Below are positions 6,601-58,185 of a DNA stretch of 64,000 bases, one piece after another. Both the position numbers and the translations under genes were made by a program. Numbering within the stretch: position 1 is the first letter of the stretch; every line of letters starts with the position of its first letter. The stretch comes from an uncultured virus (IMG/VR IMGVR_UViG_2049941000_000011) (Duplodnaviria > Heunggongvirae > Uroviricota > Caudoviricetes). Location: the IMG/VR virus record IMGVR_UViG_2049941000_000011; one strand, written 5' to 3'. The notes beneath the pieces were generated by a model, which made no database searches, was not told where the DNA came from, and saw only the letters and a program-made list of their open reading frames with translations.

Positions 6601-7604
6601 TCAGATGAGCTGTAAGCATATTGCTTAATCATTGGATATTTATCATAAGCATCTTTTAATAAATGCTTTAATTCAAACTTTGGAAGATGTAAAGCTGGAA
6701 CGATAGTAGAGTGTCTAAAATCATAATCAACAATTTGATTACTAATTTTAACTGTATTATCGAGACCTTCTTTAATTTCTTCTTCGGATAAGCCTTGCTT
6801 TAATAGAATGTCTTTCATTTCATCTTCAGACATAATATAAGTGAAACGATAGAATTTATCTGTCTCGCGATCGCTAGATTGTTTACTATTTAAGAAAGCA
6901 CTGTGGATTTTAAAGTCTTCTTTATTTAAATAGTGACTGTCTGTTGTAATAATATAAGGAATATTATAATGTTTTGCAAATTTAATTAAAGTTTTGTTTA
7001 CAGTGATTTGTTCTTCTGAATCTGAAGGTTGTAATTCAAATGCAAAATTATCTCTACCAAAAGTAGATATACACCATTTAGTAAAGTTATTTGCTCCTGT
7101 AACATCATGAGCTAAGATTTTAACAGGTAATTCTCCTCCTAAACAAGCGGTGGAGGCAAAGATGTGTCCTTGATTTGGTTTAATAATTTCTTCAATATCT
7201 TTATAAGTTGTTGGAACTCTCATGATACCTCTTTCAACGTATCCTCTACTCCAAGCTCTACTAGATAATGTTTTGAGTTGTTGCCATCCCTCTTCATCCT
7301 TGGCTAATAAAATAAAGTGATAATATTGTGTTTTCTTTTCAGGATTGGAAACGTGAACATTAACATCATCAATCAAATAAATTTCATTTCCAAAAATAAT
7401 TTTGAAGTCTGGATGTTTTTCTTTGATTTTATCTCTAATTTTTAATAAACTTACTGCCACTGATAAACTCTCATGGTCGGTAAATGCAATACCAGAGAAG
7501 CCAAGGTCAATGGCCTTTTTTACCATCTCTTCAGGTTTATTTATAGAATCTAACATTCTTAAATTAGACCCTGCGGTGTGATTATGTAAAGAAGCAAAAC
7601 CCAT
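3606..7604 (-). CDS. dnaE: DNA polymerase III alpha subunit (family C); one gene fragmented by N gaps
   Basis: PHP domain (LHNHT, TDHES, TDSHY), GRGSACG, PDIDSD, SIHASA, KMDVL, YAFSLNH, C-terminal OB fold; inter-gap stretches 5363-5515 and 4077-4171 also translate as DnaE. Confidence 0.93.
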
Positions 7605-7607
7605 AAA

Positions 7608-8351
7608 TTATATCCCCTTTCTAATATTTTTTTTATAGTGATGCAAATGCGTCCAGATAAGGCATCTGTTAATTAAATTAACAGTATTATATGTTACACC
7701 GAACACATGAGCAATTTGCGTCTGAGTTAAACGAGTTTGAAGCAAGGCATCAATAACACCTTTTGCCGTCTCGTCTGTTAATTTAGCACTTGGATTGTTC
7801 TCGCCAAGTCTGTGGGGCCCTTCTATAATTCTACCATCTGCACGAATAGGATAATTTTCATTTATATCAACATAGCTTTTCCCATAATTAATACGAATAA
7901 GAATCGCTCGGTTGTTCTTTGTGGGGGTCATTCCAATCATGGAAAGAATATCATTATAAGATAAATCAATATTTTTTAATAGAGAACGTACGATTTTTGC
8001 TTGATCATTAGATAGATGCGCCCCGTAAGCCAACTCTCCTTTTTTATGATCGTTACACTCCCCTCCATAGGTCATATTGTAACCTTCACCATCCAGATAA
8101 TAAGTGTGATATTTTTTAATATAATCTCGTTCTTTCTGCTGAGCTTCTTCTTTTTTTAGATTTCTCTCTAAAACTTCAGTTTGAAAATTTTCTACTCCAT
8201 ATTTGCGTATTGCTTTATGAAAGAGAAAGGCGTCATTATTAGAATAAGCAGAATTAATATGTTCTTTCCATCTATGCTCAAAAGTATGTTGGGTAATACC
8301 AACATACTGTTTTTGATTTATCAAGTTCGTAATTTTATAGACGATAAACAT
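7608..8351 (-). CDS. Free-standing GIY-YIG homing endonuclease with repeated C-terminal DNA-binding units
   Basis: IVYKITNLINQKQYVGIT...RWKEH...E...GYNMTYGG; two GE..(S)AxL units followed by HTH-like segments. Confidence 0.88.
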   Translation of the reverse strand: MFIVYKITNLINQKQYVGITQHTFEHRWKEHINSAYSNNDAFLFHKAIRKYGVENFQTEVLERNLKKEEAQQKERDYIKKYHTYYLDGEGYNMTYGGECNDHKKGELAYGAHLSNDQAKIVRSLLKNIDLSYNDILSMIGMTPTKNNRAILIRINYGKSYVDINENYPIRADGRIIEGPHRLGENNPSAKLTDETAKGVIDALLQTRLTQTQIAHVFGVTYNTVNLINRCLIWTHLHHYKKNIRKGI

Positions 8352-9353: not shown

Positions 9354-9429
9354 TGGTAGATCGTGAGGGATTTGAACCCCCGACCAAACGGTTATGGGCC
9401 GTCTACTCTAACCGCTGAGTTAACGATCT
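9354..9429 (-). tRNA. tRNA with CAT anticodon, most like Ile2 (lysidine type)
   Basis: Cloverleaf AGATCGT/ACGATCT-A-CCA; anticodon arm GACGG-CCCATAA-CCGTT resembles Firmicutes tRNA-Ile2; T-loop TTCAAAT. Confidence 0.88.
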
Positions 9430-9440
9430 ATCATAATAAG

Positions 9441-9525
9441 TGGTGACGGTGGAGGGACTTGAACCCACACATCCGAAGATATATGCTTCTAAGGCATACA
9501 TGACTACCAGTTTCATCACACCGCC
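9441..9525 (-). tRNA. tRNA-Leu(TAG)
   Basis: GGCGGTG/CACCGTC-A-CCA, anticodon arm TATGC-CTTAGAA-GCATA, long variable arm with TTCG loop. Confidence 0.92.
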
Positions 9526-41200: not shown

Positions 41201-44148
41201 GCGACACCTCCGGCGCTAGGTTTTCCATTATAGTGGTCAAATCTACTATATTGTGTACCCATCGTTTCAGATAAATCTTGGAATTGATCAGCATATTTAT
41301 TTGGAATTTGTGCTTTTTTAGCTTCTAGTTGCGCTAACTGTAATTTTTTATACGCTTCCAACGATTTCTCATCGTTTTTCTTAATAGCTTCAATGGTGTC
41401 ATATAATGATCCAGGACCACCGAGATATAAGTCTAAAGTTTTTCTGAGGTCTTTATTATCGTTTTCATATAAGGTCGATAGTAATTCAGTAATGCCTTCA
41501 TTAAATTCAGCACTACCAAATTGAGCATGCCCAATATTTTCAATATTGTTATTAATAGAATCTAATTTTTGCAACATTTTAGCCGCATCTTTAGCCGCTT
41601 TGTTAGCAATATCTCTAGCCTTATCAATACTACCAGCAATTTTTTCACCAATACCGATAATATTATCAAAGAACGATCCAATGCCAAACGGAATAAGGGC
41701 TAAAATAGCCGAGACTGCTCCAGCAGTTTCTTGTGCAGCCTCCGAAGACTCAACTAAACTATCCTCGTATTTGTGAGTAGCGCCAGATGTTTTATAAGCA
41801 ATTAATGCGCTAGAAAGGCTACTTATAATCATAGATACGCCAGCGAGAATAGCAGAGAAGGAGCCCCCTCCTGCAGCAGCAGCAGTCGCACCAGCAGCAT
41901 TTGCACCGCCGGCACCAGCGCCACCTCCTGCAGCAGCTATATTTGCAGCGTTTGCTGCTCCTTGTACATTTGTACCTAATAAATGAGTATTATGTATAAC
42001 ATCCGATATGCCTTGTCCAGCTTTTTGAACTAACGATTTACCCATTAATGCTTTAACATCTTCAACAGCATGAAGAATCATAGGTAACCATTTAACAAAC
42101 CATGGTAAGAGATGTTCTACAACCCAAGTAAGGCCTTTGGTAACATCTGTTAATGTCTTATTAATTTGTGCATTATTTACTAGTTGTTTAATTGCATCAT
42201 CTAAACTTGCTTTCGCTGCTTCATATGATTCTTGATATGATTTATATTTCTTATCGGCTGTACCTGCAGAGTTTTCAGATACTTCAAGATTTCTCTTATA
42301 CTTATCATAGTTTTCCATGAGAGTAAGGAAGGCTTCTTGTTGTCTAGTGCCCGCAAAACTTGTAGAAATAGCTCTTTTTGTAACATTATCTAAATCACTC
42401 CAACGTTCTGCTAATTCATCAATAATGACATCGAAATCTTTAAAGTGTAAATTAGCGTCTCTAATAGAAATACCTAATTTCTTCAAAACTTTTTCAACAT
42501 CATTTAGGTCTTGAGAATTATCCATTGTTTCAGCGTTAACATTTAATTTATTATATGCCCCAGCTTTAACGTTACCGTAACGAGACATAATCATCTTTAA
42601 TGAACTACCAACTGCAGAGCCACTGTTTTGAGTAACTTCAGCGATAGTCGCGACATATGCCGCTGCTTGGTCAAGATTAACACCATTAACATTTGCTAAG
42701 TTTGCAAATTGAGAAAGACCCTCAGCGATTTCACCCGCTGTGACAGCTGCTTGCATATCAATAGCTGTTAATTTATCAACAACCTTAATACTCTCATTTG
42801 AAGCCATCTTAAAGCCTTTTAATGCGCTTGTTAAATCTTGTGTAGCTTTAGTCATATCAATCATACCAAGTTTACTTAATTTAGTAGTTGAAGTAACTAA
42901 TTCCATAACATCGGCTGTATCATAACCTTGTCTATAGAAATCTCTAGCTGCACCTAGAACGTCTTGTGCAGTGGTGCCTAATTCTTTAGATAAATTAATG
43001 AATTGTCCTGTCAATTGTTGAGCAGCAGCTCTAGTTGTTCCTGTAACAATACGGATTTCAGTCATAGATTTATCTAATTCCTTAGCAATCTTAATAGCTT
43101 CGGTGAGACCTTTCCTCAAAATTTGGAAAAATTTCATAATAGCTCCGCCATTTACCATTCTTTCGAACCACCAAACGATACGGCCGTCTAATGAATAATA
43201 TGCGGAAGACCTCTTGGAACCTGCACCAGCTGCGCCTGCAGCGCCTTTAAGAGCTTGAGAATTCTTATAATTATATTGATTCTTTTGTAAAGCTAAATGA
43301 ATTTGATAACGACGCTCCAAATCAGCAGTATCGATACCTTCTGTTTTCTTTAATTTTTCAATCTTCGCTTCGCGACCAGCGATGTTGCCTTTTAATAAAT
43401 CGTTTTGGTCTTTTAAACTTTTAGCGTATTCAAGAGATTCAGCCGTATTTTCTTTTTGTAATTTTTCAATTTGATGTTCGTTATCTAAAATCTTTAATTG
43501 ATCTTGTAAATTTTCGTCAAATTGTTTCCTAACACGACTCATCACGCGTTCGAGTTTTTCTTCTGGAGCAAGTTCGGCTGCTTCTGCAACTTTGTCCTTA
43601 CCCTTCTTACCAGAACCGCCACCTCCAAAAGGTCCAGTGCCCTTTGGATAATTATTTACGTTATTTTCAACATGCTTAATGTTAATATTTTCTGCAGTAA
43701 TCTTCATGTGTTCTACATGTTGAATACCTTTGTGAATAATTTCTTGTTTGTCTGCTGCGCTCATTCTTGATGGTGTTGCAGCTTCTGAGGATGATAGTGC
43801 TGCTTCGACTTTATCTTCTACGACTTCTTTAACGGTTTCTTGAACAGCTTGAATTTCTTTTGTAGAAGGTTTAGTTGCCTTACCGCTACCTCTAGGTCTT
43901 CCTCTTTTTTTTGCAGAAGACACTGGTTCAGAAGCTGAAGAAGACGCCACTGGGGCATCTATAACAGGAGCGGCAGTAGTATCTCCTAGCAGAGATTCGG
44001 CTGAAATTTGCTCATTGCGCTTTTCAAACTCCTCATTTAATCCCACGACGGTGATCTCATTTGGGTCACCTACAGGAACATTAACATTTTGAGAAGATGG
44101 TATATCATCAACCCACGGTCCTTTTAATTGTTTAATTTCTCCGTCATA
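38230..44148 (-). CDS. Tape measure protein (core and C-terminal part); both ends at gaps
   Basis: ELDKSMTEIRIVTG...VVDKLTAID...GSSLKMIMSR...FAGTRQQ TP901-type core, hydrophobic Gly/Ala segment, long coiled coils, VNELGTEAII. Confidence 0.9.
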   Translation of the reverse strand, partial: YDGEIKQLKGPWVDDIPSSQNVNVPVGDPNEITVVGLNEEFEKRNEQISAESLLGDTTAAPVIDAPVASSSASEPVSSAKKRGRPRGSGKATKPSTKEIQAVQETVKEVVEDKVEAALSSSEAATPSRMSAADKQEIIHKGIQHVEHMKITAENINIKHVENNVNNYPKGTGPFGGGGSGKKGKDKVAEAAELAPEEKLERVMSRVRKQFDENLQDQLKILDNEHQIEKLQKENTAESLEYAKSLKDQNDLLKGNIAGREAKIEKLKKTEGIDTADLERRYQIHLALQKNQYNYKNSQALKGAAGAAGAGSKRSSAYYSLDGRIVWWFERMVNGGAIMKFFQILRKGLTEAIKIAKELDKSMTEIRIVTGTTRAAAQQLTGQFINLSKELGTTAQDVLGAARDFYRQGYDTADVMELVTSTTKLSKLGMIDMTKATQDLTSALKGFKMASNESIKVVDKLTAIDMQAAVTAGEIAEGLSQFANLANVNGVNLDQAAAYVATIAEVTQNSGSAVGSSLKMIMSRYGNVKAGAYNKLNVNAETMDNSQDLNDVEKVLKKLGISIRDANLHFKDFDVIIDELAERWSDLDNVTKRAISTSFAGTRQQEAFLTLMENYDKYKRNLEVSENSAGTADKKYKSYQESYEAAKASLDDAIKQLVNNAQINKTLTDVTKGLTWVVEHLLPWFVKWLPMILHAVEDVKALMGKSLVQKAGQGISDVIHNTHLLGTNVQGAANAANIAAAGGGAGAGGANAAGATAAAAGGGSFSAILAGVSMIISSLSSALIAYKTSGATHKYEDSLVESSEAAQETAGAVSAILALIPFGIGSFFDNIIGIGEKIAGSIDKARDIANKAAKDAAKMLQKLDSINNNIENIGHAQFGSAEFNEGITELLSTLYENDNKDLRKTLDLYLGGPGSLYDTIEAIKKNDEKSLEAYKKLQLAQLEAKKAQIPNKYADQFQDLSETMGTQYSRFDHYNGKPSAGGVAADVGVALGGAAVGTGIAVGSMVGTGIALGAGSLAVAGGLSLLGPIGLLLGVGFGIFAAIKMGIAQAEEDEKRHALESEWNRKTTSEQMNAIQDRIEEWQADTENNHAEDIKNAEELLATLKEQNAMISQMMDERNDISLRQGLIDAKYQDQYIQDMSIAQLKNLGNEQILQAIGESAEDHGFDGYTLFDNGKLTDAGYDYLMRQVKNLGDDEISAVLSGQAYTLSEALKLREKLGNTKQVQRILESFAASLGTTVDQLEAVESKYGSLTLADTYLSTTELANEISKYTGLLDSITTGAGNVSAWMNEIINQFPDLIAYMSDIPTLFSKIGTKLKNLSNQYVNAQYTAVSSDETTYSTIKEKFYERIGDSDITKLLDKENITSISAVTDWLKKEYLSNGKLSDRGQKVLDSLKEIVDQFDLSITSSVLKGRYDHIINFRTQVLDQELNNLNEQKEALQDINKQREYENSLIEAKLKLENAMQEKKRVYRAGVGWVYESDQNAIIDAQKNISDLENRKTVSELETQIAELESQKADLSSIYEKQNFELLSKLYDDYIKEAEKDGNFYETAEDLYQSIVAGINGVEEKLSNLIQNSSDTDAAEKTKAVEEARKAWNVLTNSKPGSRSFNTALSNFHTAMQNAKNVGMTEEDTQTWGSSVAMGNGEKVGAWAASNGKESEQRYTPKMVFDLENPHDTSEYYKGTSNMELMTDSSIAAEILEDLKDPHDSYMWLKNGDGKGFYPSDSTVYQAVDSDDTLQDYVDRLYQKGVSEYVILGIGSDYYGDYAVYVKDGKVYKVNGDSGKNNNLSNGDKGKNWRPQFDEVYTPDYTDLADGKYTGDLSFAGGPVMVNELGTEAIITPQGTLTSLPSQTGIIPADITKNLWALGDVAPNLMRMLELHLSNPKFTGVGTSTDESININTINMQVXXXXXXXXXXXXXXXXXXXXXXXXXXXXXXXXXXXXXXXXXXXXXXXXXXXXXXXXKDLFKTYMSYK

Positions 44149-44299
44149 NNNNNNNNNNNNNNNNNNNNNNNNNNNNNNNNNNNNNNNNNNNNNNNNNNNN
44201 NNNNNNNNNNNNNNNNNNNNNNNNNNNNNNNNNNNNNNNNNNNNNNNNNNNNNNNNNNNNNNNNNNNNNNNNNNNNNNNNNNNNNNNNNNNNNNNNNNN

Positions 44300-47200
44300 G
44301 AATTTTTCACGAATTTTTTCTTCAGATTCATGTAAAAATACAGCGAGAGTATATCCCTTAGCGTCACCCTTAGCTGTTGGGCATCTAACATATTCATGTC
44401 TACCAATATTATTTCCACATTCATAAATATAAATTCTACCAGCAAGTTCTCCATCGTCAGCGAGAAATCTAACAGCTGCATAATTCTTATTATCGCTATC
44501 TCCATAAACATAGTATAAACCATCTTTAATTTGAGTTTCACGCCACTTTGCCAAACGTTTTGCCGCCGAGCGATCTTTCTTAGTATCATAACGTGATACA
44601 CGATCATCTATATCAGACAAACCAGCCACAAAATTATCTTGTGCCTCTTTGTTTGCATGCATAGCTGTAACGGTAGAACCTTGTAAAACCAAATTTTCTA
44701 AGGCTCCATCAGACCCCGTCATAGTATCGAGTTTAGCATGTTCGCCGATTTGTTTTTCTATAACATCGATTAACGAATCTTTTCCGCCACTATTAACTTC
44801 AGCATATTGTGCACTGTCTTCACATTGCTTGTAATATGCAGCTAAACTGTGTAAAACATTACGAACACTACCGTCTTCTCCGGCTATTGTTTCCAACCAA
44901 ACAGAATCTGTCGCCTGGCCTCCGAGGTACCATAAAATATAACCCCAGTCATATCCAGCGTCTAAAAGAGCATCAATTTCTTCTCTTAGTCTCATAGTAG
45001 CTGCCATTTGAGTAGATTGTTCAGAAGTTAAATTTGCTTTGACAAATTCAGCTGGGTTAGCTGTTAATTCATCATTATGATCTTTTTGATAATTTTTAAA
45101 TAATTTACCAATAGCTGAAGCATAAATATCTTTAGCATAGTATAAATAAGATAGTTTATGAGCAACTTTTGTAGAATTTAATATTTTATCATCTGGATTA
45201 AANNNNNNNNNNTCTAATAATTCATCTTCTAACAAACTATCTCTACGAGGATCAAATTTAGCATCTTCATCAGCAAGAATTTTAGCTGCGTCTGCAGGCA
45301 TCATTTCCATAATACCCTTATCATTTATACCATAACTCTTGAATACACCATTAACCAAGTGCAACATACTTTGATCTGATGATGCTTTAATAGCTTTATC
45401 TATATCATTAATAGAAGAAAAACCAGCCATTCTAGATTTGATGAATTTACTTTTAGTTTGTTCAGATAATTTTGAAATATCTATATCACTCAAATCATGC
45501 CATGGGTGGTCACCTTTCATCCAATCTTCTTTAGAGCCACCTTGTTTAATAAAATCATAAAAATCACCCCAATATTGTTTTTCTCGAGGTAAAAATGTTT
45601 TATTTAACCAACTGTCTGGTTCAATTAAATTATTATTAATACCATTAATGGCTGATAATGTCATTTGATATTGCTCAGCATTTAATCTGTTCCAGGCTTG
45701 CGGGATTTGCAGATTTTCTTCTAGAATACCGACCATGTGATCATATAGTTTTTGTCTCTTAGCTGGCGATTGTCCTGCAATCATTGACATCCAACCAGAA
45801 AAAGATCTCGCTCCAATATCAATTCCATAGTCTCCTTGAGAAATAGTTCGATCCTTCATTGGATCTGCGTAAGCAGTATATTTATTTTTTAATACATCAA
45901 ACATTTCTTGGATAGGTTTATCATCATCGGATACTTTTCCATCTTTTCCTATAAATGATCTCGTACGAATTTGTCTTTGGAAATACCCCCTGTCATAACC
46001 AGGAACGCTCATGATTAAATCATGTAAAGCTTCAGCACCTCCACCATTTTGAGCAAAATGACGAGCCCATTCGGTTAAACTTTTACCATTAATAGTGCGC
46101 ACTGGTACATTTTTTCCATCTTCAGTTACCCAATTACGAGTACCTAAAGTTGTACCTACTCCACCACGGCCTAATATGCCAACAGCTTTTTTATATAATT
46201 TTTCTTTTTCTTCAGGGGTTTTTGCATTTTGCACTTGAAGAGAAATATCGATACATTCTAAAATCTTTTTTAGACCTAGATCATTAATATCAACTAAACC
46301 AGCAGATTGATCATTATTTCTTGGTAAATGAATAATTTTACCCTTATTGTCTAATTTAATTCCGTTGATTCGAGCTAATAATCTTAACAAATTAATTTGT
46401 AAACCATAATCAGCTCCAATGGATCCAGAACTTTTTAAGTCTGTAATCATAGCACCAAAAATTTGGTCTAATGTTCCAGCAATATTAACTTCGCGTCCAT
46501 TAATATTAATACGAGCTCCTAAAGCCTGCTCTGTAGCAGTTGCATTTTTATTACCAAGGCCCATTGAATCTTTTAGTCGTAAATAATCATTAAGATTTTT
46601 TTCTAATGATGCAATAATTTTTTGTTGAGCTTTATCAGTTCTATCATATATATGACCGTTTTTTCCATAGCTGTATAAAAAACCAGCTGCATCAGCTTGA
46701 TCTTCTGCTCTGGCGCTTTGAGCTAATTTTTTTACAAAGGATTCTACATCTTTATTTTTTACAGTCATTCCCGTGTGAGGTTTACCAAAAACATTAGATT
46801 TTTCGAGTTCTTCTATGGCTCTATGTAATAAAGTACCATAAGCCGTAGCATCAGTATCACCTTGATTTTCTTTTTTATAATATTCTGTAAAATTTTTAGT
46901 AAGTTGTGTAACAGAATAAATCGGATCCTTACCATATTTTTTCTTATCAGAAGCACCTTTCAAAACATATTCATGTTTTCTACGTTGAATACCATTAAGA
47001 ATTTCAATTGATGTATCTAAAGCAACATTTAAAGCTTTGGCTTGAACAATACCATTATTTAAATTCTTACGATATTCTTTAATTTTAGGATTACTTTCTG
47101 TTTTTTTTACCTCTTTAGTTAAAGCCAAGAGTTTATTCATTTTATCTTTAATTTTATTATATTCTGCTTCTTTGTCTAAGCTTTCAAGATNNNNNNNNNN

Positions 47201-47361
47201 NNNNNNNNNNNNNNNNNNNNNNNNNNNNNNNNNNNNNNNNNNNNNNNNNNNNNNNNNNATTGTGAAGGGTTGCTCTTAAACCACTCTGTTATTTCATCAA
47301 GTTGTTTTTGTAATTCAGCAATTTCTTTCATTGATTGCTTATCTTCCATGTTGTTTGCCAT
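44300..47361 (-). CDS. Large protein with a PD-(D/E)XK-like domain; probable N-terminal part of the tape measure protein
   Basis: Starts MANNMED after AGGAGG; open frame runs into gaps on both sides; YSVTQL, YGTLLH, IAGTLD, TDLKSS, YGLQINL motifs. Confidence 0.65.
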
Positions 47362-47380
47362 ATTCAACCCTCCTAAACAT

Positions 47381-47408
47381 AAAAAAGAACTACCCATTCG
47401 GGCAGTTC
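47381..47408 (-). terminator. Intrinsic terminator closing the large ncRNA unit
   Basis: GAACTGCCC-GAAT-GGGTAGTTC followed by T6. Confidence 0.85.
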
Positions 47409-47425
47409 ATAATTTTTAACATAAC

Positions 47426-48042
47426 TGTTCTTTGATAAGTAATTTAACATTGAGACTTTTCTTCATCTTACAACACTTTTATCATGTTTTATTCACACAC
47501 ATTCACGGAGGTCTGAGCGAAAAGGAGCTACCTTTAGGCTTCCTCAATGGGGTAAAACCCGAACAATGGCTAGAATCAAATAGATTGTATTTGTATTCTG
47601 CAACTTTCACCGAACTTCAGAATTTTTTAAGGTTCATCAGTTACTATTACTCATAACTCATGCACAACGTATCATATTTGAGCTGTGTCATACGGCTACT
47701 TGCACACTTACTAACTCTTATACATAACTTACGTTACTTCAAGACACTTCCTTACTTTGAGAACCCAGCTATCAAGTTTCTCAGGCTTGTAACTAATGGT
47801 GAGATGTATTTCTACAGAGCTTCTTGTGGGACGAGCTGTAAGCTTGTTTAAACACCGATAATATGTTGCACTGACATCTCCGCTCGTAAATCGTAGCTTA
47901 CGAGAGAACTCTGATGTTACCTACCAGAGTTTTTTACGTACGACCAGTATCCCAGCCTTATTGCTATTTCATCAAGATGCCATCCCTGCAAGACGTAATC
48001 CTCTTCACAGGGTTCAACTAATAAATTACTTGTCAAAGAACA
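47426..48042 (-). ncRNA. Large structured ncRNA (~575 nt) in a 21-bp terminal stalk; ROOL-like candidate
   Basis: No credible ORF; inverted repeat 47426-47446 / 48022-48042 (20 of 21 match); own promoter and terminator; near tRNAs; size fits ROOL. Family assignment unverified. Confidence 0.7.
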
Positions 48043-48098
48043 ATTTGGTTTTAACAACTTTTCCTTGTTGAATTCTTTTATAGTGAATTACGCTATTT

Positions 48099-48127
48099 AG
48101 TATATATGGTATTTATATTCTTGTCAA
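48099..48127 (-). promoter_or_regulatory. sigmaA-type promoter of the large ncRNA
   Basis: TTGACA-17-TATACT. Confidence 0.8.
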
Positions 48128-48182
48128 ACATTTTTTTTATTTTGTCTCAGATATAAATATTTGACTCAACCTTTTACACTCT

Positions 48183-48494
48183 CTAGAATGGTAAATTGAA
48201 GAATGTTGCAAACAATTCAGAAAGAGTTGGACCCTTCGATGTTGTAACACTTGTTTGTGTGTGATGATAGCTCTTATAATCTTGAATAAAGCTATTAAGA
48301 GCATCTTGATATTTCTTTCTAGCTTCTAAATAAGCAGCTTCTAGAGTTTCAACCTCTTTTGCTCTTTCAGCTCTTTTCTTTTTGAAATCTTCAATTTGAG
48401 CTTGTTTCTCATCATACTTTTTTTCATCTGCTTCTAAATCTTTTTTAGATTCATAGATTTTACCAGTTTTTTCACTTTTAAATAATTCAATCAT
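48183..48494 (-). CDS. Small coiled-coil protein (103 aa)
   Basis: AGGAGG SD before MIELFKSEK; the longer tracked ORF overlaps tRNA-Gln and is over-extended. Confidence 0.75.
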   Translation of the reverse strand: MIELFKSEKTGKIYESKKDLEADEKKYDEKQAQIEDFKKKRAERAKEVETLEAAYLEARKKYQDALNSFIQDYKSYHHTQTSVTTSKGPTLSELFATFFNLPF

Positions 48495-48574
48495 TTTTAA
48501 GTCCTCCTGTTGACTTTGCGAATAAAATCCTATTTTTATTCCGCATAATAACTGTGTATCTGAGACCATACACT

Positions 48575-48649
48575 TGGCAGGGAAAGAAGGGTTCGAACCT
48601 TCGCATCCAAGATTCAAAGTCTCGTGCCTTACCACTTGGCTACTTCCCT
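48575..48649 (-). tRNA. tRNA-Gln(TTG)
   Basis: AGGGAAG/TTTCCCT-G-CCA, anticodon arm CGAGA-CTTTGAA-TCTTG, T-loop TTCGAAC. Confidence 0.92.
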
Positions 48650-48670
48650 ATTTTATCCAATTAACTTCAA

Positions 48671-48696
48671 AGCAGTTTTGCGACTTGCTCGGGTCG
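48671..48696 (-). repeat. H-type pseudoknot motif (related copies at 50111-50136 and, degenerate, 48764-48787)
   Basis: CGAC-CCGAGCAA-GTCG-CAAAAC-TGCT. Confidence 0.6.
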
Positions 48697-49052
48697 GGGA
48701 GTAGAACTATCGTCCATCGTCCTCGTCCTCATCTCAATTAAGCTCCGCATGGACTATGTGAGCAGCAGTTTAACGACATGTCGGTCAACCGATACAATTA
48801 TTTTTAAATCTATATTACTCTATCGGCTAAGTATGAGATTTATATAAACTTTCTTCCTGTTGGTAGAAAGATCACATATTTATGAAAGAGGGTATCTCCT
48901 TTTCTCCAATAAGCAGCCGCAGCTATTTATTGTCCACAAACGCCGTGCACGACGATAGAGATTAGGTGTGGCATCGGCGCCCCTCGCGCCCATTATCCCT
49001 CGTTATTTCGCAAGACACCCCCTGGCCAGAGGATATCAAGTTACTCTCTATT

Positions 49053-49129
49053 TGGTTGGAATGACAGGATTCGGACCTGCGACCTTCTGCTCCCAAAGCA
49101 GACGCGATACCAAGCTACGCTACATTCCA
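49053..49129 (-). tRNA. tRNA-Pro(TGG)
   Basis: TGGAATG/CATTCCA-A-CCA, anticodon arm TCTGC-TTTGGGA-GCAGA; atypical T-loop TCCGAAT. Confidence 0.88.
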
Positions 49130-49193
49130 ATATTTGTGTGGGCTCAACCCCACTTGCAGACCCTTTTGCCTGGAGTTCCCCAGCTTTTCTAAT

Positions 49194-49356
49194 AGTCTAT
49201 ATCTGATGCTCGGGTCATTGGAACGCTGTGTCCTCAAAGATAGGCCCGATGTTTTTTTATTCTTACACATCATTAAACTTTAGTAGTCCACTTACTTAAT
49301 CCTTATCTGGCCAAAAAACGAACCCTAGAATCCTAGGAACCAGCATCAGACTAAAC
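49194..49356 (-). ncRNA. Rod-like hairpin RNA with central bubble (6S-like candidate)
   Basis: Closing helix TCTGATGCT/AGCATCAGA, inner GGCC.GAT/ATC.GGCC helix, unpaired centre. Confidence 0.4.
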
Positions 49357-49372
49357 AACATTCAGTACCAGG

Positions 49373-50150
49373 TGGTGGAACTTATTTGACTCATCCTTTT
49401 ATCAGGGACATTACTGCGGGATCGAGGGTTTACTCTCCTCTTAACATGGAGTCTTCATGGGTTTATAGTTTTCCTTCTGATGGTCTTCTACAATGTCTCT
49501 ATTGCTCTTGCGTGCGGTCTCTACCAGTAGCCCAACGAAGTCTCTTGACAGGAGCTCTCTCTATCCCAATGCAAGTCCAAGGATAGCCGTCAACGCTCGG
49601 CCTAACTCTCTACTTAGTGTAGTTAGACTTTGCCTCTCACGTAAGAACGCGGGTTACCCCGCAGCCGGCAAACACCCCGACTCTCCCTTTTACGTTATGA
49701 GGCCTAGAGACTTACATGCTCTAACATGGGTTTATATGGTTTTCCTTCCACATTAATTTTGGCCCTTTAAGCGTCGGGTCAGAAACGCTCGCATTCGCGA
49801 CACAGGTGTGGACGTATCCTATCCTGCTTTCCTATTGTAAAGAGGAACTTCACAAAAGTTCCCCAGCGAGCCATCGGCTCTAATAATGTAATACAATTTG
49901 TTTTCGTTCGAAGCAGACAAATCATAACTGCTATATTATCTATGAATCCGCAAACGCATAGATACTATCTGTTTAATAAAGCTTTCAGGGGTTATAGCTT
50001 CATATGACTTTAATCTTTAACAGATTCATGTTTTACGAATTTACCCTGCAGCGGCTACTTCAACCCGAAAAGTCCGGTGCATTTAAAGACTCACCAGCGT
50101 CTTTGTCTATGGCAGTTTAACGTCATGCCAGGGACGTGTGTCTAATTTCA
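49373..50150 (-). ncRNA. Structured non-coding transcript region of unknown family
   Basis: Higher GC than flanks, no credible minus-strand ORF, many hairpins and pseudoknots, duplicated motif; downstream of a consensus promoter. Confidence 0.6.
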
Positions 50151-50160
50151 AAGTAATTAT

Positions 50161-50189
50161 ATTATAGACGACAACACTTATAATGTCAA
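50161..50189 (-). promoter_or_regulatory. Consensus sigmaA promoter of the tRNA/ncRNA island
   Basis: TTGACA-17-TATAAT. Confidence 0.88.
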
Positions 50190-50210
50190 TTATTTTTATA
50201 TCTACAATAT

Positions 50211-52652
50211 CTATTTAATAATTGGTGCATAATCATAAGACTGAACAGAAATAGTGGTCCAAGAAAGTGGGGTTGAGGAATTCTCAGTAGTGTAGCCTGC
50301 TAAAGTTAATCCTATGCCACCCGTACCTTGCCACAATTCAATTAACTCAAGAGGGTTAGATTGTTGAAGCAGCGCGGATAATTGTTGAGTAGGAGCACTG
50401 CCAGAGCTAATGTTCATATTGTAAAACTTAATGCTTTTTAGTAAATCAGCATAATTTCTATCAACAGTAATATTAGTAAGAAGGGTATATAAAGAATCAC
50501 TAGATTCTAATAATTGAGTACATGCTTCATCTTTATATAAATGATTTGCTGTTTCATTTTGTGCTTTATTAGGATTGTAAACAGTTGTATTTTTAAAATA
50601 TAAAATCTCTGGCTCAGGTTCTGGCTCTTCTGCCTCTGCCCATTCCACTCTCTTCACAGGAGCCGAAAGAATAGACTGTAAGCCATCAAAGTTTACAGAT
50701 TCACTATCTGTCGTTAGATAAGGATATCCATTTTCGAGATGATTATCTATAATACTTTGATCCCATGTTCCGCCGTCTCGAGTGTCAATTGCTCTTTCAA
50801 AGACATCTCCATCATACCAACCAAACCACCAATCACCATTATCTGCTTTTCTTATATATAAATCCCAACCAGAGCCTTCTCCTCCATATGCTAAGAAACA
50901 GTAATCCCACTCATCTAAATCTGGGAATGCATTGTCTAAGATATTAATAACTTCTGCACGAGTTAAATTGGTATTGATATATAACTTATTATAACTAGTA
51001 TCATGTTGTAGCGGATTACCAACGCCATCATCATATGACACTTCCATTACATACTTTCCTTCGTCAAGATTTTTAGGAGAAGGTGTAGATTCATCGGCCC
51101 AAATTGTTCGTCCACTTTCATCGCAAGTAAGAATTTGTCCAGGTGAACCTGAACCTGGTCCCACTGTGACAATCTCACGGAAATTTTTTCCGTCTGCTGA
51201 TGGAGGTAATATTAATGCACCATCGACTTCTTTAGGAACATACATTAATTGACTTAAAATATTTAATTGTGATTGATTTAAAACATTCTGACCAGTACCT
51301 TCGTTTGGTCTACCATTAATAGGTATACGATTGCCAAATTGTTCTAGATATTCTTCATTCCACTCAAATCGATTGAAAATATCCCCATCAAATAAAACGT
51401 CGCCAGTATTTGGATCTGTTAAATATACTGAGATCTTTGTACTTTCCCAATCCTCTGAGTCCATATAAAAAGTAATTTCAAGTCCTTTGGTGCTATAAAC
51501 AGTATATGTATCATATTGACCCGTTGAATTTAGAATACTCCAAACCTCTTCATATGGTTTAGTAGCATCAAATACTATCTCTTGAGGCCAACGACTGCCA
51601 TCATCAAGAGTAAGGCCATCTAATGGAGCCGGAATAGCTTCTATTTCATTAGAAACTTCTCTATAGAATACATTATAATTAATTTCCGATAAAGGTTGCG
51701 TTGGATCAACACTAATAATAGCTTGCGGTACAACAAATTTAGGATCAATCTTGATAATAGATTCACCCCCTCCAAAAATTGTTGCGTGCTCCATGCACAC
51801 TACACCTTCTATCGCACCATAGTGTTTAGTTTCGGTCATGAATAAACCACGAGACATCCCTGGAATATCATCTTGTGTAATCCCCACTAAAAGCTCACGC
51901 GTACTACCTGTGTGATCTTCTACTTCAATAACATATTCGTTTTCTTCAGTATATATCATTGCGCGAGTAATAGTACCTGTGGCTGGAGCCGCTCCTGGTT
52001 GTAATACTACAGAGTAACGTTTACCAATAAATGCTGATGCTTCACAGTAGTCACCAACTTTTTTAACATGTTCTTCTGTGCCAACTCTTATTTCAGCATC
52101 GACCCAATTACCATCCCAAGAATAGGAATTAAAATTACCTCTTGTACCACGTGGTGGACTGTATTCTAATCTAGCGGTATATTGTAATATATTTACTTCA
52201 TTAATCGCGCCTTCTTTAAGATAGAAAAAATATAAACCAGCCTCAGGAAATATATATCCATTCCATATTGTTCCAGGTGTTAAAATACATATAACCATCG
52301 TACTGCCATAGTATGGAACATAATAATTTACTCCGTCAGTATCTCCGTCACCTTGCCAAGGATATGCCTTGTCATCATTATCATAAAGAGACGCATTACC
52401 AAAATAATCATCTGCATCAATAATTTCTTGAGGTGTTGTTAAAGGAGAATCTCCAACTCTTACCCAGCCGCTTACATAACTATAGACAGGTTCTTCTAGT
52501 GAATCATCATAACTAATAACACCTTCTTCTACAATACCCATGCCGCCAGCTTTAGCAGAGTTAATAATAGTATCTACTTCAGGTGGTATGTCTCCTCCAC
52601 CTCCGCCGGATTTACTCAATGCGAGTAAACGTGCAATAACATCAACTCCCAT
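50211..52652 (-). CDS. Large acidic beta-rich protein, probably virion-associated
   Basis: Short N-terminal helix plus SGGGGG linker, GSPGQILT..GRTIWAD fibre-type motif, two related internal domains. Confidence 0.6.
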   Translation of the reverse strand: MGVDVIARLLALSKSGGGGGDIPPEVDTIINSAKAGGMGIVEEGVISYDDSLEEPVYSYVSGWVRVGDSPLTTPQEIIDADDYFGNASLYDNDDKAYPWQGDGDTDGVNYYVPYYGSTMVICILTPGTIWNGYIFPEAGLYFFYLKEGAINEVNILQYTARLEYSPPRGTRGNFNSYSWDGNWVDAEIRVGTEEHVKKVGDYCEASAFIGKRYSVVLQPGAAPATGTITRAMIYTEENEYVIEVEDHTGSTRELLVGITQDDIPGMSRGLFMTETKHYGAIEGVVCMEHATIFGGGESIIKIDPKFVVPQAIISVDPTQPLSEINYNVFYREVSNEIEAIPAPLDGLTLDDGSRWPQEIVFDATKPYEEVWSILNSTGQYDTYTVYSTKGLEITFYMDSEDWESTKISVYLTDPNTGDVLFDGDIFNRFEWNEEYLEQFGNRIPINGRPNEGTGQNVLNQSQLNILSQLMYVPKEVDGALILPPSADGKNFREIVTVGPGSGSPGQILTCDESGRTIWADESTPSPKNLDEGKYVMEVSYDDGVGNPLQHDTSYNKLYINTNLTRAEVINILDNAFPDLDEWDYCFLAYGGEGSGWDLYIRKADNGDWWFGWYDGDVFERAIDTRDGGTWDQSIIDNHLENGYPYLTTDSESVNFDGLQSILSAPVKRVEWAEAEEPEPEPEILYFKNTTVYNPNKAQNETANHLYKDEACTQLLESSDSLYTLLTNITVDRNYADLLKSIKFYNMNISSGSAPTQQLSALLQQSNPLELIELWQGTGGIGLTLAGYTTENSSTPLSWTTISVQSYDYAPIIK

Positions 52653-53153: not shown

Positions 53154-53609
53154 CTAATTTTTAATAAAACGATAAGTAATATCTTTAATATTACCACATT
53201 GTATATGGAATAATCTTTGATTGGTGTTGGGGTTATTTAGTGGTCCTTTTTCTGGAATATATCCCCCAATTTTATAATAATCAAGCACAGGAACCAAATC
53301 TCTGTCTAATTCGTCATCACCACTATACATACCAACTTTTAAGTGAGTAGTATTATGTATATAATTAGCCATATACTTAATATAATTATGATCACTGTCG
53401 CCCCCCATAAAGCAAACACAAGTAATACCGAAATGGTCTTGAATTAATTTATCTAATTCTGCTTCTGATAATACTGTACCGATATCTTCACGAAGCCACG
53501 GAGAGTGACAATTTTTACACATATGAGGACAACTGGTAATATCTATAGCTAAAGTAATTTCATCAGGTATTTCACTGAATACTACTGCGCTATCATAATA
53601 TTTAAGCAT
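53154..53609 (-). CDS. nrdG: Anaerobic RNR activating radical-SAM enzyme
   Basis: CPHMCKNCHS, FMGGD, DYYKIGGY, TNQR. Confidence 0.92.
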   Translation of the reverse strand: MLKYYDSAVVFSEIPDEITLAIDITSCPHMCKNCHSPWLREDIGTVLSEAELDKLIQDHFGITCVCFMGGDSDHNYIKYMANYIHNTTHLKVGMYSGDDELDRDLVPVLDYYKIGGYIPEKGPLNNPNTNQRLFHIQCGNIKDITYRFIKN

Positions 53610-55522
53610 CTTTAATATCATCCTTTTTTGCGTAATATCTTGTAACAGCTTCAACTTGTCTAGCTTCACTAAAATTTCCAATGCGCTTGAGATATCCAAT
53701 GATTCTAGTTAAATAGTCAACATTTTTAGAACCGCAGTGTTCACAATGGTCTAAATGATGTTTGCTAATATGTCCGCATTCGTTACAGATTGTATTAGGG
53801 ATATTAAATGTAAAATATGAACATCCAGCATGTATTGCAATATCCATTAACATACGATATTGTTTTTGAGATAAGTGTTCATCTAAATTACAATGATATG
53901 CGCTACCACCATCTAAATTACCAATAAAATCATGTCCTTGTAAGAACATTTTTGTAATTGGATCATACTTAGGATCTTCGACAGGATAGAAATAGGAATT
54001 ATATAAATTTCTCTTTGGATTAACATAATATCCATCTCTCTTATCCCATTTATATAACTTCGCACCCGCATTCTCTGCTGGAACTTGCTCTGTATTAAAT
54101 CTGAGATGTTCTGTTCTGTGTGCAGTATTTAATTCTTTAATAGTATTCAAAATATCCTTCGCATACATCTTATATGATTCGTTACTAGGATTAATTTCAA
54201 TATTTTTGTAGCAATCACTATTAACATGAGCTAAGAACTCTGCGCCTTCGATGAAACCATTAAATCCGATAGTAAGATATTGTTTGTCTAAATCAATATA
54301 TCCAGCATCATAAACTGTTAATAATCCAGAATTCTTTAAATCCCAAAGATAATCATTCCAAGCTTCTAAATATTTATGTACTCTATTAACAATATCAGCG
54401 ATATAGTCACTAAGTGTACCTTTATATTTGAATAATAATCTATGTGATTTTCTATACCAATCTTGGACTATTCTATTAATATTTAAAGTAATAACTTTCT
54501 TAGAGCCAGTTTCAACACCGCCAGCTCCCAATGTATAACTAAAAACGTTCTCTTCGATAGCATTTTTCAAACGGCAACAACTTGAAAGTGCATCCGCAGA
54601 ATCACTATTATATAAGAAGAACGAATGGCCTTCTGCCCACATTTCTGCTGTAAAATCTGCCATATCTGAATCAACATATTGTTTTGTGTCTTTGTTCCAC
54701 AATAAATTCATGGTTTCAACAGGGAAAGTAATAACATCATGTGTTCTTTCTTGATTAAACCATTTCATAAATATTTTTTGCAATTTCTTAGTGGATTCCC
54801 AACAAGGAATGTCTCCGTCAGGGAAAATAAAATCCTTAAAAATAGATTCAAAANNNNNNNNNNNNNNNNNNNNNNNNNNNNNNNNNTATCCTTTGTCGAA
54901 ATATGCAATGTTTGTAAATGGAGATTGATATCCCCTTGCACCAGCAGGTTGATTTATACAATAGACAAATTCTTGAAATAAATCTTCAATAATATGTCTC
55001 ATTGTGAANNNNNNNNNNATTATATACACATTCTTCTAAATGCTCCATATAATCATCACCGTAATCTACTCTTAAGAAGTGGTCTAAATAAGGCAAAAAT
55101 TCAGGAACAGCGACTGCTCCTGCAAATTGACCAGCAACTAAGAANNNNNNNNNNGCGTGTTTAGGAGCACCGCTGGTTCCCCCCAATGGCTTTAACCCTT
55201 CTAATAAAAAAGGATATAAAGAAATAGCTACACAATAAGGCATAATTGAAGTCTCATCATGAGAATAAATAAGATGTCGTGCTAAATCTTTATCGAATTT
55301 TCTACATATTTTAATACCATATTTTTTTCGAAGATAAGTTTTTGTAATAACTCTATTTACTTCAATAAAATCGGGCTTAGAAAGCTCTGAAGACATTGTA
55401 GCAATATTTTTACTTGTTACATTTGCGTTAGCATCCACAGTGCTTCCAGATGCAGCATTTTTTGCCTTTTTGTAGCGATTAATAAAACGCAATTTTCTCT
55501 TGGTTAGCTTACTTATTCTCAT
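53602..55522 (-). CDS. nrdD: Class III (anaerobic) ribonucleotide reductase, split by gaps, no ATP cone
   Basis: IYSHDE, PYCVA, SSCCRL, EQVPAE, CNEC/CEHC zinc site, glycyl-radical motif RIIGYL. Confidence 0.93.
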
Positions 55523-55745
55523 TGTTGTCTCCCCCTTGTAAGCGAACCCATTCAAATATATCTTTTCCCACATATGATTTTTCGTCGACTACAAGTACGG
55601 GAGTGTGAGAGAAACCCAATGCTTTAATTTGTTCAGTATCCTGATTTTCAATGTACTGAATATTATTTTTATTTAACATCATCTTAACCATTTTGCATTG
55701 AGGACATCCTGGTTGAGAATAAATTGTAACTGTATGTTGATCCAT
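55509..55745 (-). CDS. nrdH: NrdH/glutaredoxin-like redoxin
   Basis: TIYSQPGCPQC...TPVL. Confidence 0.85.
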   Translation of the reverse strand: MDQHTVTIYSQPGCPQCKMVKMMLNKNNIQYIENQDTEQIKALGFSHTPVLVVDEKSYVGKDIFEWVRLQGGDNNENK

Positions 55746-56492: not shown

Positions 56493-57179
56493 TTACTTCA
56501 TATTTTTGCGCAAATAATAACGATTCATATTTGCAATTTTAATTTTTTCTTTATGTTTTTGATAATATTCACGTTTTTGTTGTCGCAAATATTCTTTTTG
56601 TTCAGATGACATTTTAGCAAGGCGCCTTTTTTCGCTATCTCTTTTACGAAGTAATTTTTCTTCTCTGCTCAAAGGAATACGAGGCGCCCAATTTGGGTCT
56701 TGTTCCCTTTTAGCTTTATTACGAATACGGCTACGTAGTAAAATAGCTTCCCTATTTTGAAGATAATACGCTCGCTGTCTGGCATTTTTTTGTTCTCTGT
56801 GTTCATTTTCCCAACGGACATGAGAGTATTTTTCTGCCGCTTGTCTATCTTCTTCAGTTAAATACTTAATAGCCCCTTCTCCTCCATACGTCATATTATA
56901 TCCATTGCAATTAGGATCTTTTATACACGTATGATATAATAAGATAAGCTCTCTTTCTTTTTCTTTCGCGTCTTGTTCTGTTAAATTTTGAAACAAAATA
57001 TTATGCTGAATATTATTCCATCCATATTTTTGTATAGCTCGATACATCATAGGTTGAACATTCTCTTTATATCCCCACCCATAATCCCAACGTAATTGTG
57101 GCGATTGACATGTAATGCCAATATATTTTTTACCATTAGGAAATATATGCTCATAAACAATAAATTTTCTATCTGGCAT
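56493..57179 (-). CDS. GIY-YIG endonuclease with basic C-terminal repeats
   Basis: IVYEHIFPNGKKYIGIT...RW...GYNMTYGGEG; RAYYLQNRE and REYYQKHKE repeats. Confidence 0.85.
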   Translation of the reverse strand: MPDRKFIVYEHIFPNGKKYIGITCQSPQLRWDYGWGYKENVQPMMYRAIQKYGWNNIQHNILFQNLTEQDAKEKERELILLYHTCIKDPNCNGYNMTYGGEGAIKYLTEEDRQAAEKYSHVRWENEHREQKNARQRAYYLQNREAILLRSRIRNKAKREQDPNWAPRIPLSREEKLLRKRDSEKRRLAKMSSEQKEYLRQQKREYYQKHKEKIKIANMNRYYLRKNMK

Positions 57180-58185
57180 CCGAACTATCCCCTTTTTTAT
57201 TGTTATACTTAACAAAAAATTTATTTAGTTTTTCTTCTGTAGGAGTATCATCGTAAATTTTAATTAAATCTGAACTTGCCCACGAGAATATCTGAACAAT
57301 CACATCATCTGGTAATTCCATAGATTTTAATAATGTACAGAAATAATGTCTACTTGAGTGATTGTAATATTCAATATTAAACATTTTTGAAATCTTAGCA
57401 GCAAAATTATTTGCGGTTGAAGTATTAGCTGGCACATAAATACCACCTTTTTTCGTTACAAATAAATAGTCACTGGTGATTCCTAATTTTTCTCTTTGAT
57501 TCATCCATTGATCAAAGAATGGTTGAAAGAATTCTTTAATAACATATTTTTTAATCAATTTACCTTGTTTTCCTCTGCCTTTGGATCTAATTGATGGAGT
57601 ACAATACATGTATCCGTCAAAAACTTCTCTCTCAGGAACAAAGAACTCTGGCTTCATTTGAAGCATTTCTGATTTTCTACAACCAGATGCACATAATAAA
57701 GCTAAATAACAAGCAATTTGATATTCTTCGTTGTCTACGAGCCCTTGTAAAATGTTATTAATATCTTCATTACTTAATACAGTCTTTTCACGAACAGTAT
57801 TAATATGAACTGGTTCTAATCCTCTTAATTGATTATGAAAATTCGGATAAATATCTTCATATAATAATTCAATTTCAGAAGATAGACTGCTTAATACAGA
57901 TTTTAGGGATGCGATTCTATTTGAACTCATTCCTAAATCTCTACACCAACCAAAGTAGTAAACAAAGTCTCTCTTTTTAAGCTCAATAAAAAATTTATCA
58001 TCATTTTCTAATAAGTTCCAACAAAAGAAAACTTTAAGCCATTCTTCGTATTGGTGGATGGTTTGCGGAGATTTATCATTAGACTTACAGTATTTAATAA
58101 AATCTTTTACAAGTCTCTGATTTTCGGCAGAAACATTTGCATAATCTTTAGTTAAATTATCATTATAAACTGTTGATCTGCCCAT
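57169..58185 (-). CDS. Tyrosine recombinase (XerC/D/integrase family)
   Basis: SGCRKSE, SKGRG, HSSRHYF, FSW, catalytic Tyr in IKIYDD. Confidence 0.88.
   Translation of the reverse strand: MGRSTVYNDNLTKDYANVSAENQRLVKDFIKYCKSNDKSPQTIHQYEEWLKVFFCWNLLENDDKFFIELKKRDFVYYFGWCRDLGMSSNRIASLKSVLSSLSSEIELLYEDIYPNFHNQLRGLEPVHINTVREKTVLSNEDINNILQGLVDNEEYQIACYLALLCASGCRKSEMLQMKPEFFVPEREVFDGYMYCTPSIRSKGRGKQGKLIKKYVIKEFFQPFFDQWMNQREKLGITSDYLFVTKKGGIYVPANTSTANNFAAKISKMFNIEYYNHSSRHYFCTLLKSMELPDDVIVQIFSWASSDLIKIYDDTPTEEKLNKFFVKYNNKKGDSSDAR

Follow-up and report, generated by a model that had tools for sequence, protein, structure and literature searches.

A full-length, divergent ROOL RNA gene with a boxA-like foot on its closing stem in a phage of the cattle gut

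The ROOL RNAs (Rfam family RF03087) have been described by Weinberg et al. 2017 (PMC5737381), Cousin et al. 2017 (PMC5643018) and Kretsch et al. 2025 (PMC12286853) and in a review (PMC12990946). They are reported from phages and prophages near transfer RNA (tRNA) islands (PMC12286853, PMC5737381), and their monomers are described as assembling, free of protein, into hollow hexameric or octameric cages (PMC12286853, PMC12990946), which are known for the env-120, E. faecalis and L. salivarius RNAs. GOLLD RNAs are likewise large and ornate, occur in phages or prophages close to tRNAs and are reported to form RNA-only cages, but they have a separate fold and constitute a separate family. In the passages and sections consulted, the published ROOL accounts make no mention of boxA, Nus factors or RNases; in the literature searched, ROOL and boxA never appear together, and among the papers listed for combinations with antitermination, NusB and RNase III none names ROOL or GOLLD. 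Here we describe a ROOL gene in a stretch of 64,000 nucleotides (nt) from an uncultured virus (IMG/VR IMGVR_UViG_2049941000_000011; Caudoviricetes), referred to in full as the window. The closing stem of this ROOL, P1, carries at its 5' foot a sequence resembling the boxA of ribosomal RNA (rRNA) operons.

A search of the whole window with Rfam cmscan matched RF03087 over the complete model at 192.7 bits, exceeding the gathering score of 99.1 (E = 8.2e-42); GOLLD gave no match at gathering scores. The ROOL match spans 602 nt and the arms of P1 enclose 575 nt, near the family's 580 nt. The conserved blocks of the family are all visible in the cmscan alignment, namely AACCCnGUGAAGA, the GGGAUAC loop, CAAGUAGCC, UUCUGAA...GGUGAAAGUU, GCUCAGAC and GAAUA. 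Folded with its stalk closed, the 619-nt RNA has a minimum free energy (MFE) of -170.3 kcal/mol (z = -4.3), and none of 20 shuffles folded as well. A protein-coding interior was rejected, as the longest sense-strand open reading frame (ORF) inside has at most 46 amino acids (aa). The original prediction, made from the letters alone, had proposed a self-contained large noncoding RNA gene that was ROOL-like and devoid of a credible ORF over 575 nt. All of this is borne out, and the identification as ROOL itself lowered the novelty of the locus, as had been foreseen.

Comparison ROOLs were gathered by conserved-block patterns from IMG/VR and from named genomes. Screening confirmed ROOL in 35 of 40 IMG/VR loci (20/20 and 15/20) and in all 20 named-genome loci found with the three-block pattern, one of which is truncated at the end of its contig; the copy in the window fits this pattern as well. 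Two observations weigh against placing the window's RNA among typical members. Its score lies below those of all 34 viral ROOLs scored as full loci with 900-nt flanks (253-367 bits) and all 19 uncut genomic ones (255-361 bits), and about 33 model pairs, counted by eye on the cmscan alignment, are non-canonical. The ROOL of L. salivarius pMP118 (L149, 1802-2344, minus strand), although established by experiment, scores still lower, at 130.4 bits with an Rfam span of 543 nt. The window's RNA is therefore regarded as a genuine yet divergent member. No close relative was found in GenBank phages by distant blastn with the 747-nt unit, nor among the collected IMG/VR or metagenome loci, where the best was L087 with 74% over 92 nt. 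The likeness to described ROOLs extends to the full model and blocks, a length of about 600 nt, a long P1, the phage and tRNA context, the cattle gut and the presence in RNA libraries. The apical stem of the window's copy is shortened relative to other ROOLs, in a region that the papers describe as variable and as setting cage size. We are confident that the stretch is a full-length, divergent ROOL RNA gene with its own strong promoter and intrinsic terminator, a closing stem and a boxA-like 5' foot. The ROOL family has already been published, as have its rumen origin and its setting in phages near tRNAs, and as a ROOL gene this one is ordinary.

All elements of the ROOL unit lie on the minus strand within 47381-48127 (747 nt), and their coordinates are collected in Table 1. 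The number of promoter-like sites in 47000-49400 is at chance level (six, against a shuffle mean of 6.2); the ROOL promoter, TTGACA-17-TATACT, counts because it is the best of the six and is well placed. Transcription is predicted to start near 48092, about 50 nt ahead of the stalk. At the other end of the unit, the ribosome-binding site of the next gene begins 6 nt past the T run of the ROOL terminator. No promoter-like site lies between the two, the nearest minus-strand one downstream being at 47178, within that gene. A side possibility, given that a gene directly follows the terminator without an intervening promoter, is that transcription continues into the tail genes.

Of the 21 positions in the two arms of P1, 20 are complementary and one is a C-A mismatch; the arms lie exactly 575 nt apart. 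The pair ranks at the top of seven inverted repeats in 44000-52000, and the 29-nt extension is 86% complementary. Promoter, arms and terminator had all been named in the original prediction, and each is present as described there. Pairing of the arms is also a property of the family. When the 5' and 3' zones are taken from the same RNA, the median pairing energy over 49 ROOL lineages is -31.6 kcal/mol, compared with -13.5 kcal/mol for foreign partners (p = 9e-15). The arms are just 34% alike between lineages. With pairing strong among own partners and the arms dissimilar, P1 is a conserved structure with free sequence, a family trait.

The 5' strand of P1 opens with the boxA-like 13-mer. In its exact form, TGTTCTTTGAMAA, it occurs once in the 64-kb window, and the sole copy with one mismatch is the complement of the 3' arm. 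The motif was noticed on aligned ROOL ends, where many P1 5' feet read ...C(U/C)UUGA(A/C)AA. The reference consisted of 16S loci with their flanks, drawn from genomes that belong to the same phylum as a ROOL-bearing Streptococcus. An unbiased k-mer count returned C[CT]TTGAAAA as the commonest 9-mer in 21 16S leaders (18-19 of the 21, one mismatch allowed). The copies in rRNA spacers read TTGTTCTTTGAAAAC or TTGTTCTTTGAAAACTGCACA, and one reads ...GTTCTTTGACAAC, sharing the GACAA variant of the window. The sequence GTTCTTTGA, which the original prediction had likened to the boxA of Firmicutes rRNA, is the boxA of Bacillota rRNA operons as checked against these real leaders and spacers. The k-mer result agrees with the reported binding of B. 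subtilis NusB to its rrn boxA, which has the consensus AUGAUCUUUGAAA (PMC13753749).

Scoring was carried out with a 13-nt core matrix built from 32 distinct rRNA sites, with rRNA grade set at 12.7 bits, the 10th percentile of those sites. This matrix was picked after a wider 20-nt one including the CUGAACA tail had been tried; the wider matrix gives the same direction more weakly (8.5 bits for the window; 11/33 lineages at shuffle p <= 0.05). On the core matrix the 5' arm of the window scores 15.0 bits (shuffle p = 0.004), compared with 5.2-19.5 bits and a median of 17.3 for the rRNA sites. In a first set of 33 non-redundant ROOL lineages, a 75-nt zone round the 5' end held a site of rRNA grade in seven, and 13 beat their shuffles at p <= 0.05. 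The controls at rRNA grade gave 0/33 for the 3' zone in sense, 0/33 for the reverse strand of the 5' zone and 1/33 for the 3'-arm complement. As the motif had been noticed on these loci, new ones were drawn for a held-out test, comprising 16 lineages that share no cluster with the first set and whose ends were placed by profile anchors (error 0-3 nt on known cases). Three of the 16 reached rRNA grade and nine beat their shuffles at p <= 0.05. The 5' zone outscored the 3' zone (p = 0.0011), the reverse strand (7.6e-5) and the interior (0.0013). When both sets are pooled, 10 of 49 lineages carry a site of rRNA grade, compared with 0-1 of 49 in the controls, and 22 beat their shuffles. The 5' arm also outscores the complement of its 3' arm as a boxA (p = 0.003 in the first set, 0.047 held-out), which places the constraint on the 5' strand itself.

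We found that the rRNA operons of the phylum place boxA in the same structural position. In 15 of the 16 operons compared, the 16S trailer pairs with at least seven of the ten bases of the boxA core, and the pairing energy lies beyond all 50 shuffles in 14 of 16, the 16 including near-duplicates and amounting to roughly 11 distinct operons. boxA is thus the 5' foot of the leader-trailer helix in this phylum, as it is in the ROOL stalk, and the proposal that boxA sits in an rRNA processing stalk is confirmed for the operons themselves. Both systems have a promoter followed by boxA about 50 nt on, the letters of the ROOL boxA fall within the rRNA range, and in both the boxA foot pairs with sequence past the 3' end of a large structured RNA. 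They differ in that the enclosed RNA is ROOL rather than 16S or 23S, that the ROOL leader has no hairpin before boxA whereas rrn leaders have one, and that the ROOL stalk has 21-29 base pairs (bp) compared with 30-45 bp for the rRNA helix. In the 16S leader-trailer helices (L116, L121-L143) the G of CUUUGAAAA is recurrently unpaired, opposite a trailer G where this could be read, and its neighbours pair. The ROOL stalk pairs this G and has its mismatch two bases later, so the irregularity is not exactly copied. Outside rRNA, boxA is reported at suhB and at CRISPR arrays, where a short boxA likewise heads an untranslated or poorly translated transcript (PMC13753749); these cases differ from ROOL in being gammaproteobacterial and in lying outside any long-range closing helix.

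Two arrangements were seen among the collected ROOLs. Several boxA-positive IMG/VR copies (L001, L037, L052 and others) have an extended -10 box, TGATATAAT, 5-20 nt ahead of boxA. In L012, L019, L040 and L252 the boxA foot directly follows a tRNA, an order resembling that of tRNA, boxA and 23S in rRNA spacers.

The RNA itself is represented in sequencing libraries. According to the run index, 20 runs contain the stretch or part of it, and seven of these are RNA libraries. The DNA runs X1-X4, all from one bovine-gut sample, contain the full 747 nt and may be where the window came from. Contigs of four cattle-gut RNA libraries, from four studies, were aligned to 47270-48700. Each run gave one contig lying wholly on the ROOL body (4/4), although contigs indicate neither strand, ends nor level. 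The contigs end at 47456-47464 on the 3' side of the RNA and at 47986-48022 on the 5' side, none of them extending past the inner edge of the arms, and they have no loose ends there. These end points hint weakly at an abundant RNA species without leader, terminator and most of the stalk. In the RNA libraries, the flanks 47270-47455 and 48038-48277 are not covered by any contig of this organism, from which no conclusion is drawn. Short RNA contigs at 47685-47829 and at tRNA-Gln have loose ends on both sides and represent ROOLs or tRNAs of other organisms. In L. salivarius the mature ROOL was reported to be 520 nt by circular RACE (rapid amplification of cDNA ends), with a promoter 225-450 nt upstream (PMC5643018). 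The far-upstream promoter implies that ROOL is excised there from a longer transcript (PMC5643018), which gives excision a precedent within the family.

Table 1 Features of the ROOL unit, the RNA contigs aligned to it and the neighbouring genes
Feature	Position	Strand	Details
Sigma-70-type promoter, TTGACA-17-TATACT	48127..48099	minus	11/12 matches; top site in 47000-49400
Predicted leader	48043..48092	minus	~50 nt, transcription start to stalk; without significant hairpin
P1 5' arm, TGTTCTTTGACAAGTAATTTA	48042..48022	minus	21 nt; extended form 29 nt, 48022-48050
boxA-like 13-mer, TGTTCTTTGACAA	48030..48042	minus	5' foot of P1, first 13 nt of 5' strand
ROOL RNA, Rfam RF03087	48036..47435	minus	cmscan, model 1-574 of 574, not truncated
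P1 3' arm	47446..47426	minus	21 nt; extended form 29 nt, 47418-47446
Intrinsic terminator	47408..47381	minus	9-bp stem (5 G-C pairs), 4-nt loop, T6
RNA contig X5	47461-48018		558 nt; 0 differences
RNA contig X6	47456-48004		549 nt; 0 differences
RNA contig X7	47463-47986		524 nt; 0 differences
RNA contig X16	47464-48022		560 nt; 4 differences and 1 gap
Union of the four RNA contigs	47456..48022	minus	each contig aligned in full
Next gene	ribosome-binding site AGGAGGG 47374..47368; ATG 47361..47359	minus	read from sequence
998-aa ORF	44144-47140	minus	no known family; downstream of ROOL
Tape-measure ORF, 2125 aa	38230-44607	minus	PF10145, phrog_4211
tRNA-Gln (UUG)	48575..48649	minus	447 nt upstream of ROOL promoter
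tRNA-Pro (UGG)	49053..49129	minus	upstream of ROOL

These data suggest a possible pathway for the production of the RNA, along the lines of the rRNA-style antitermination and RNase III-type maturation put forward in the original prediction. Once the promoter fires, boxA would emerge about 50 nt into the transcript, on a strand that is still single-stranded. It would then load NusB/S10 of the host, together with the other components of the antitermination complex, onto RNA polymerase, a step that we consider a real possibility, if somewhat short of an even one. As at rRNA operons, the complex would shield the untranslated transcript and speed transcription, and it would retain the 5' end close to the polymerase while the body is transcribed. 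P1 would close once the 3' strand emerges, 575 nt later. The closed stalk could then be trimmed in the manner of a pre-rRNA stalk to leave a stable ROOL body, although trimming by a double-strand-specific RNase is a doubtful element of the scheme. By analogy with other ROOLs, the body may finally assemble into a cage. A broader proposal, which we consider rather less likely than not, is that a third to half of ROOL genes, that of the window among them, are miniature rRNA operons. In these, a boxA-foot stem would recruit NusB/S10 for a Rho-proof, fast and chaperoned transcript, the 5' end would be held and the stalk cut, here perhaps with read-through to the tail genes. The rRNA-style stalk is supported as a feature at the level of sequence, and the mechanism is an attractive proposal.

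Several points speak against such a role for boxA. At shuffle p <= 0.05, 27 of the 49 lineages have no boxA site, so the motif is not family-wide. A large Streptococcus ROOL cluster has none, though a Streptococcus rrn operon has a clear boxA; the host-matched comparison covers one genome, since rRNA came from one of five Streptococcus genomes, and the ROOL of that genome is without boxA. The best-studied member, the L. salivarius pMP118 ROOL, shows no boxA-like site at its foot. A boxB-like hairpin in the leader of the window is unsupported (MFE -6.6 kcal/mol, z = +0.24). Coverage decay near the ends, or a stable helix hindering reverse transcription, would equally stop the RNA contigs short of the stalk. 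In addition, boxA is short and AT-rich, and the tests overstate independence because ROOL lineages are related. The ROOL sample was drawn by a pattern demanding three exactly conserved blocks, and the boxA matrix stems from a single phylum and from sites picked by their likeness to the top k-mer, which biases it towards the consensus.

Alternatively, the locus may be an ordinary ROOL with a purely structural closing stem. The boxA likeness would then be functionless, either inherited in an AT-rich helix or reached by convergence on an easily paired sequence, and the ends of the RNA would be set by promoter, terminator and unspecific trimming. This explanation stands not far from an even chance. 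It accommodates the majority of lineages that have no motif and the leader that has no boxB-like hairpin. It also fits the L. salivarius ROOL, which is reported to be as abundant as 16S rRNA and has no boxA, and the cages described as forming in vitro from plain T7 transcripts. It accounts less well for a motif that is confined to the 5' foot of P1 and found neither in the 3' zone or the interior nor on the reverse strand, for boxA letters that are kept on the 5' arm where the 3' arm departs from perfect complementarity, in arms otherwise so little alike between lineages, and for the reproduction of the result on held-out lineages.

Two further explanations assign the sequence a different signal function. 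Phage nut sites consist of boxA and boxB and drive late transcription. By analogy with them, the ROOL unit might double as the leader of the tail-gene operon, with the boxA-modified polymerase passing the ROOL terminator. The closely spaced ribosome-binding site, the lack of a promoter-like site before the next gene and the uniform orientation of the 56 ORFs of at least 100 aa, two small antisense ones excepted, are in keeping with this. It is nevertheless unlikely, as most ROOL genes lie in tRNA arrays rather than before structural genes, and rrn-type complexes are reported to act mainly against Rho and not against intrinsic terminators (PMC13753749). The TTGACA in the arm might otherwise be a DNA-level signal, either a -35 box or a protein-binding site, and no RNA signal at all. 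It repeats the hexamer of the true -35 box, which lies 85 nt upstream, and is present in several other ROOL feet, but no -10 hexamer follows 16-18 nt after it, most boxA-positive feet read TTGAAAA, which fits boxA, unlike a -35 box, and the arm bases belong to the RNA's own helix. We regard a DNA-level role as very improbable.

The phage is a large, SPbeta-like one of the cattle gut, and its tRNA genes next to ROOL agree with the published context of the family. The window's DNA polymerase is 41% identical to polymerases of SPbeta-like Bacillus phages and of a Geobacillus phage, from which a Bacillota host appears likely. ROOL had been placed directly upstream of the tape-measure locus in the original prediction. 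This holds roughly, in that the gene starting at 47361 and the 998-aa ORF precede the tape-measure ORF. A masked run of 77 N (47192-47268) falls within the next gene, so its continuity with the 998-aa ORF cannot be read. The 998-aa and tape-measure ORFs overlap as listed by 464 nt in different frames. The tape-measure matches start only at residue ~344, so the true start may lie further downstream. Jointly the two ORFs would form a tape-measure region about 3000 aa long, a size resembling that in SPbeta-like phages. Tail genes lie in this part as well, and a tail fibre gene is present in the window. The remainder of the window encodes a split DNA polymerase, a primase, a helicase, exonucleases, a split NrdD and an integrase-like gene. 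All 56 ORFs of at least 100 aa, apart from the two small antisense ones, share the strand of ROOL.

The polymerase lies in three pieces on the minus strand (5484-7604, 4172-5395 and 3606-4076), with a GIY-YIG homing endonuclease gene just upstream (7608-8351). NrdD is present as two overlapping minus-strand ORFs (54986-55573 and 53602-55029), again with a GIY-YIG endonuclease gene upstream (56493-57215). The split genes beside GIY-YIG genes suggest the movement of introns, inteins or homing endonucleases. A second tRNA pair, tRNA-Met (CAU) and tRNA-Leu (UAG), lies at 9354-9525 on the minus strand, distant from ROOL. The gap between tRNA-Pro and tRNA-Gln (48650-49052, minus strand, 400 nt) reaches a GC content of 0.52, has no ORF of at least 100 aa and gave no Rfam match at E <= 1. 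Further upstream, the minus-strand region 49320-50196 begins with a perfect TTGACA-17-TATAAT promoter, followed within about 10 nt by the boxA-like ACTTTGAAAT. About 800 nt of ORF-poor sequence comes next (GC 0.44-0.53), with an internal direct repeat, GGAAAAC..ATAAACCCATG, in two copies, and the unit ends in a terminator-like hairpin (49338..49323) just ahead of tRNA-Pro. This region gave no Rfam match at E <= 1, has a fold z of -1.46 and showed no IMG/VR homologue when searched by its internal repeat; GenBank phages matched it at tRNA-Pro only. The region could encode another RNA, as yet uncatalogued, or simply form a long leader of the tRNA operon.

Divergent in sequence and expressed in nature, the window's ROOL comes from the habitat in which the family was discovered, has RNA contigs in four studies, three of the four letter-perfect, and is a good candidate for relating sequence variation to cage size. 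The boxA foot links two fields that are unconnected in the papers searched and offers a concrete, testable mechanism for the abundance and biogenesis of ROOL, through rRNA-type antitermination, co-transcriptional joining of the ends and processing of the stalk. If the proposal is true, phages borrow the transcription machinery with which the cell assembles its ribosomes to mass-produce RNA cages.

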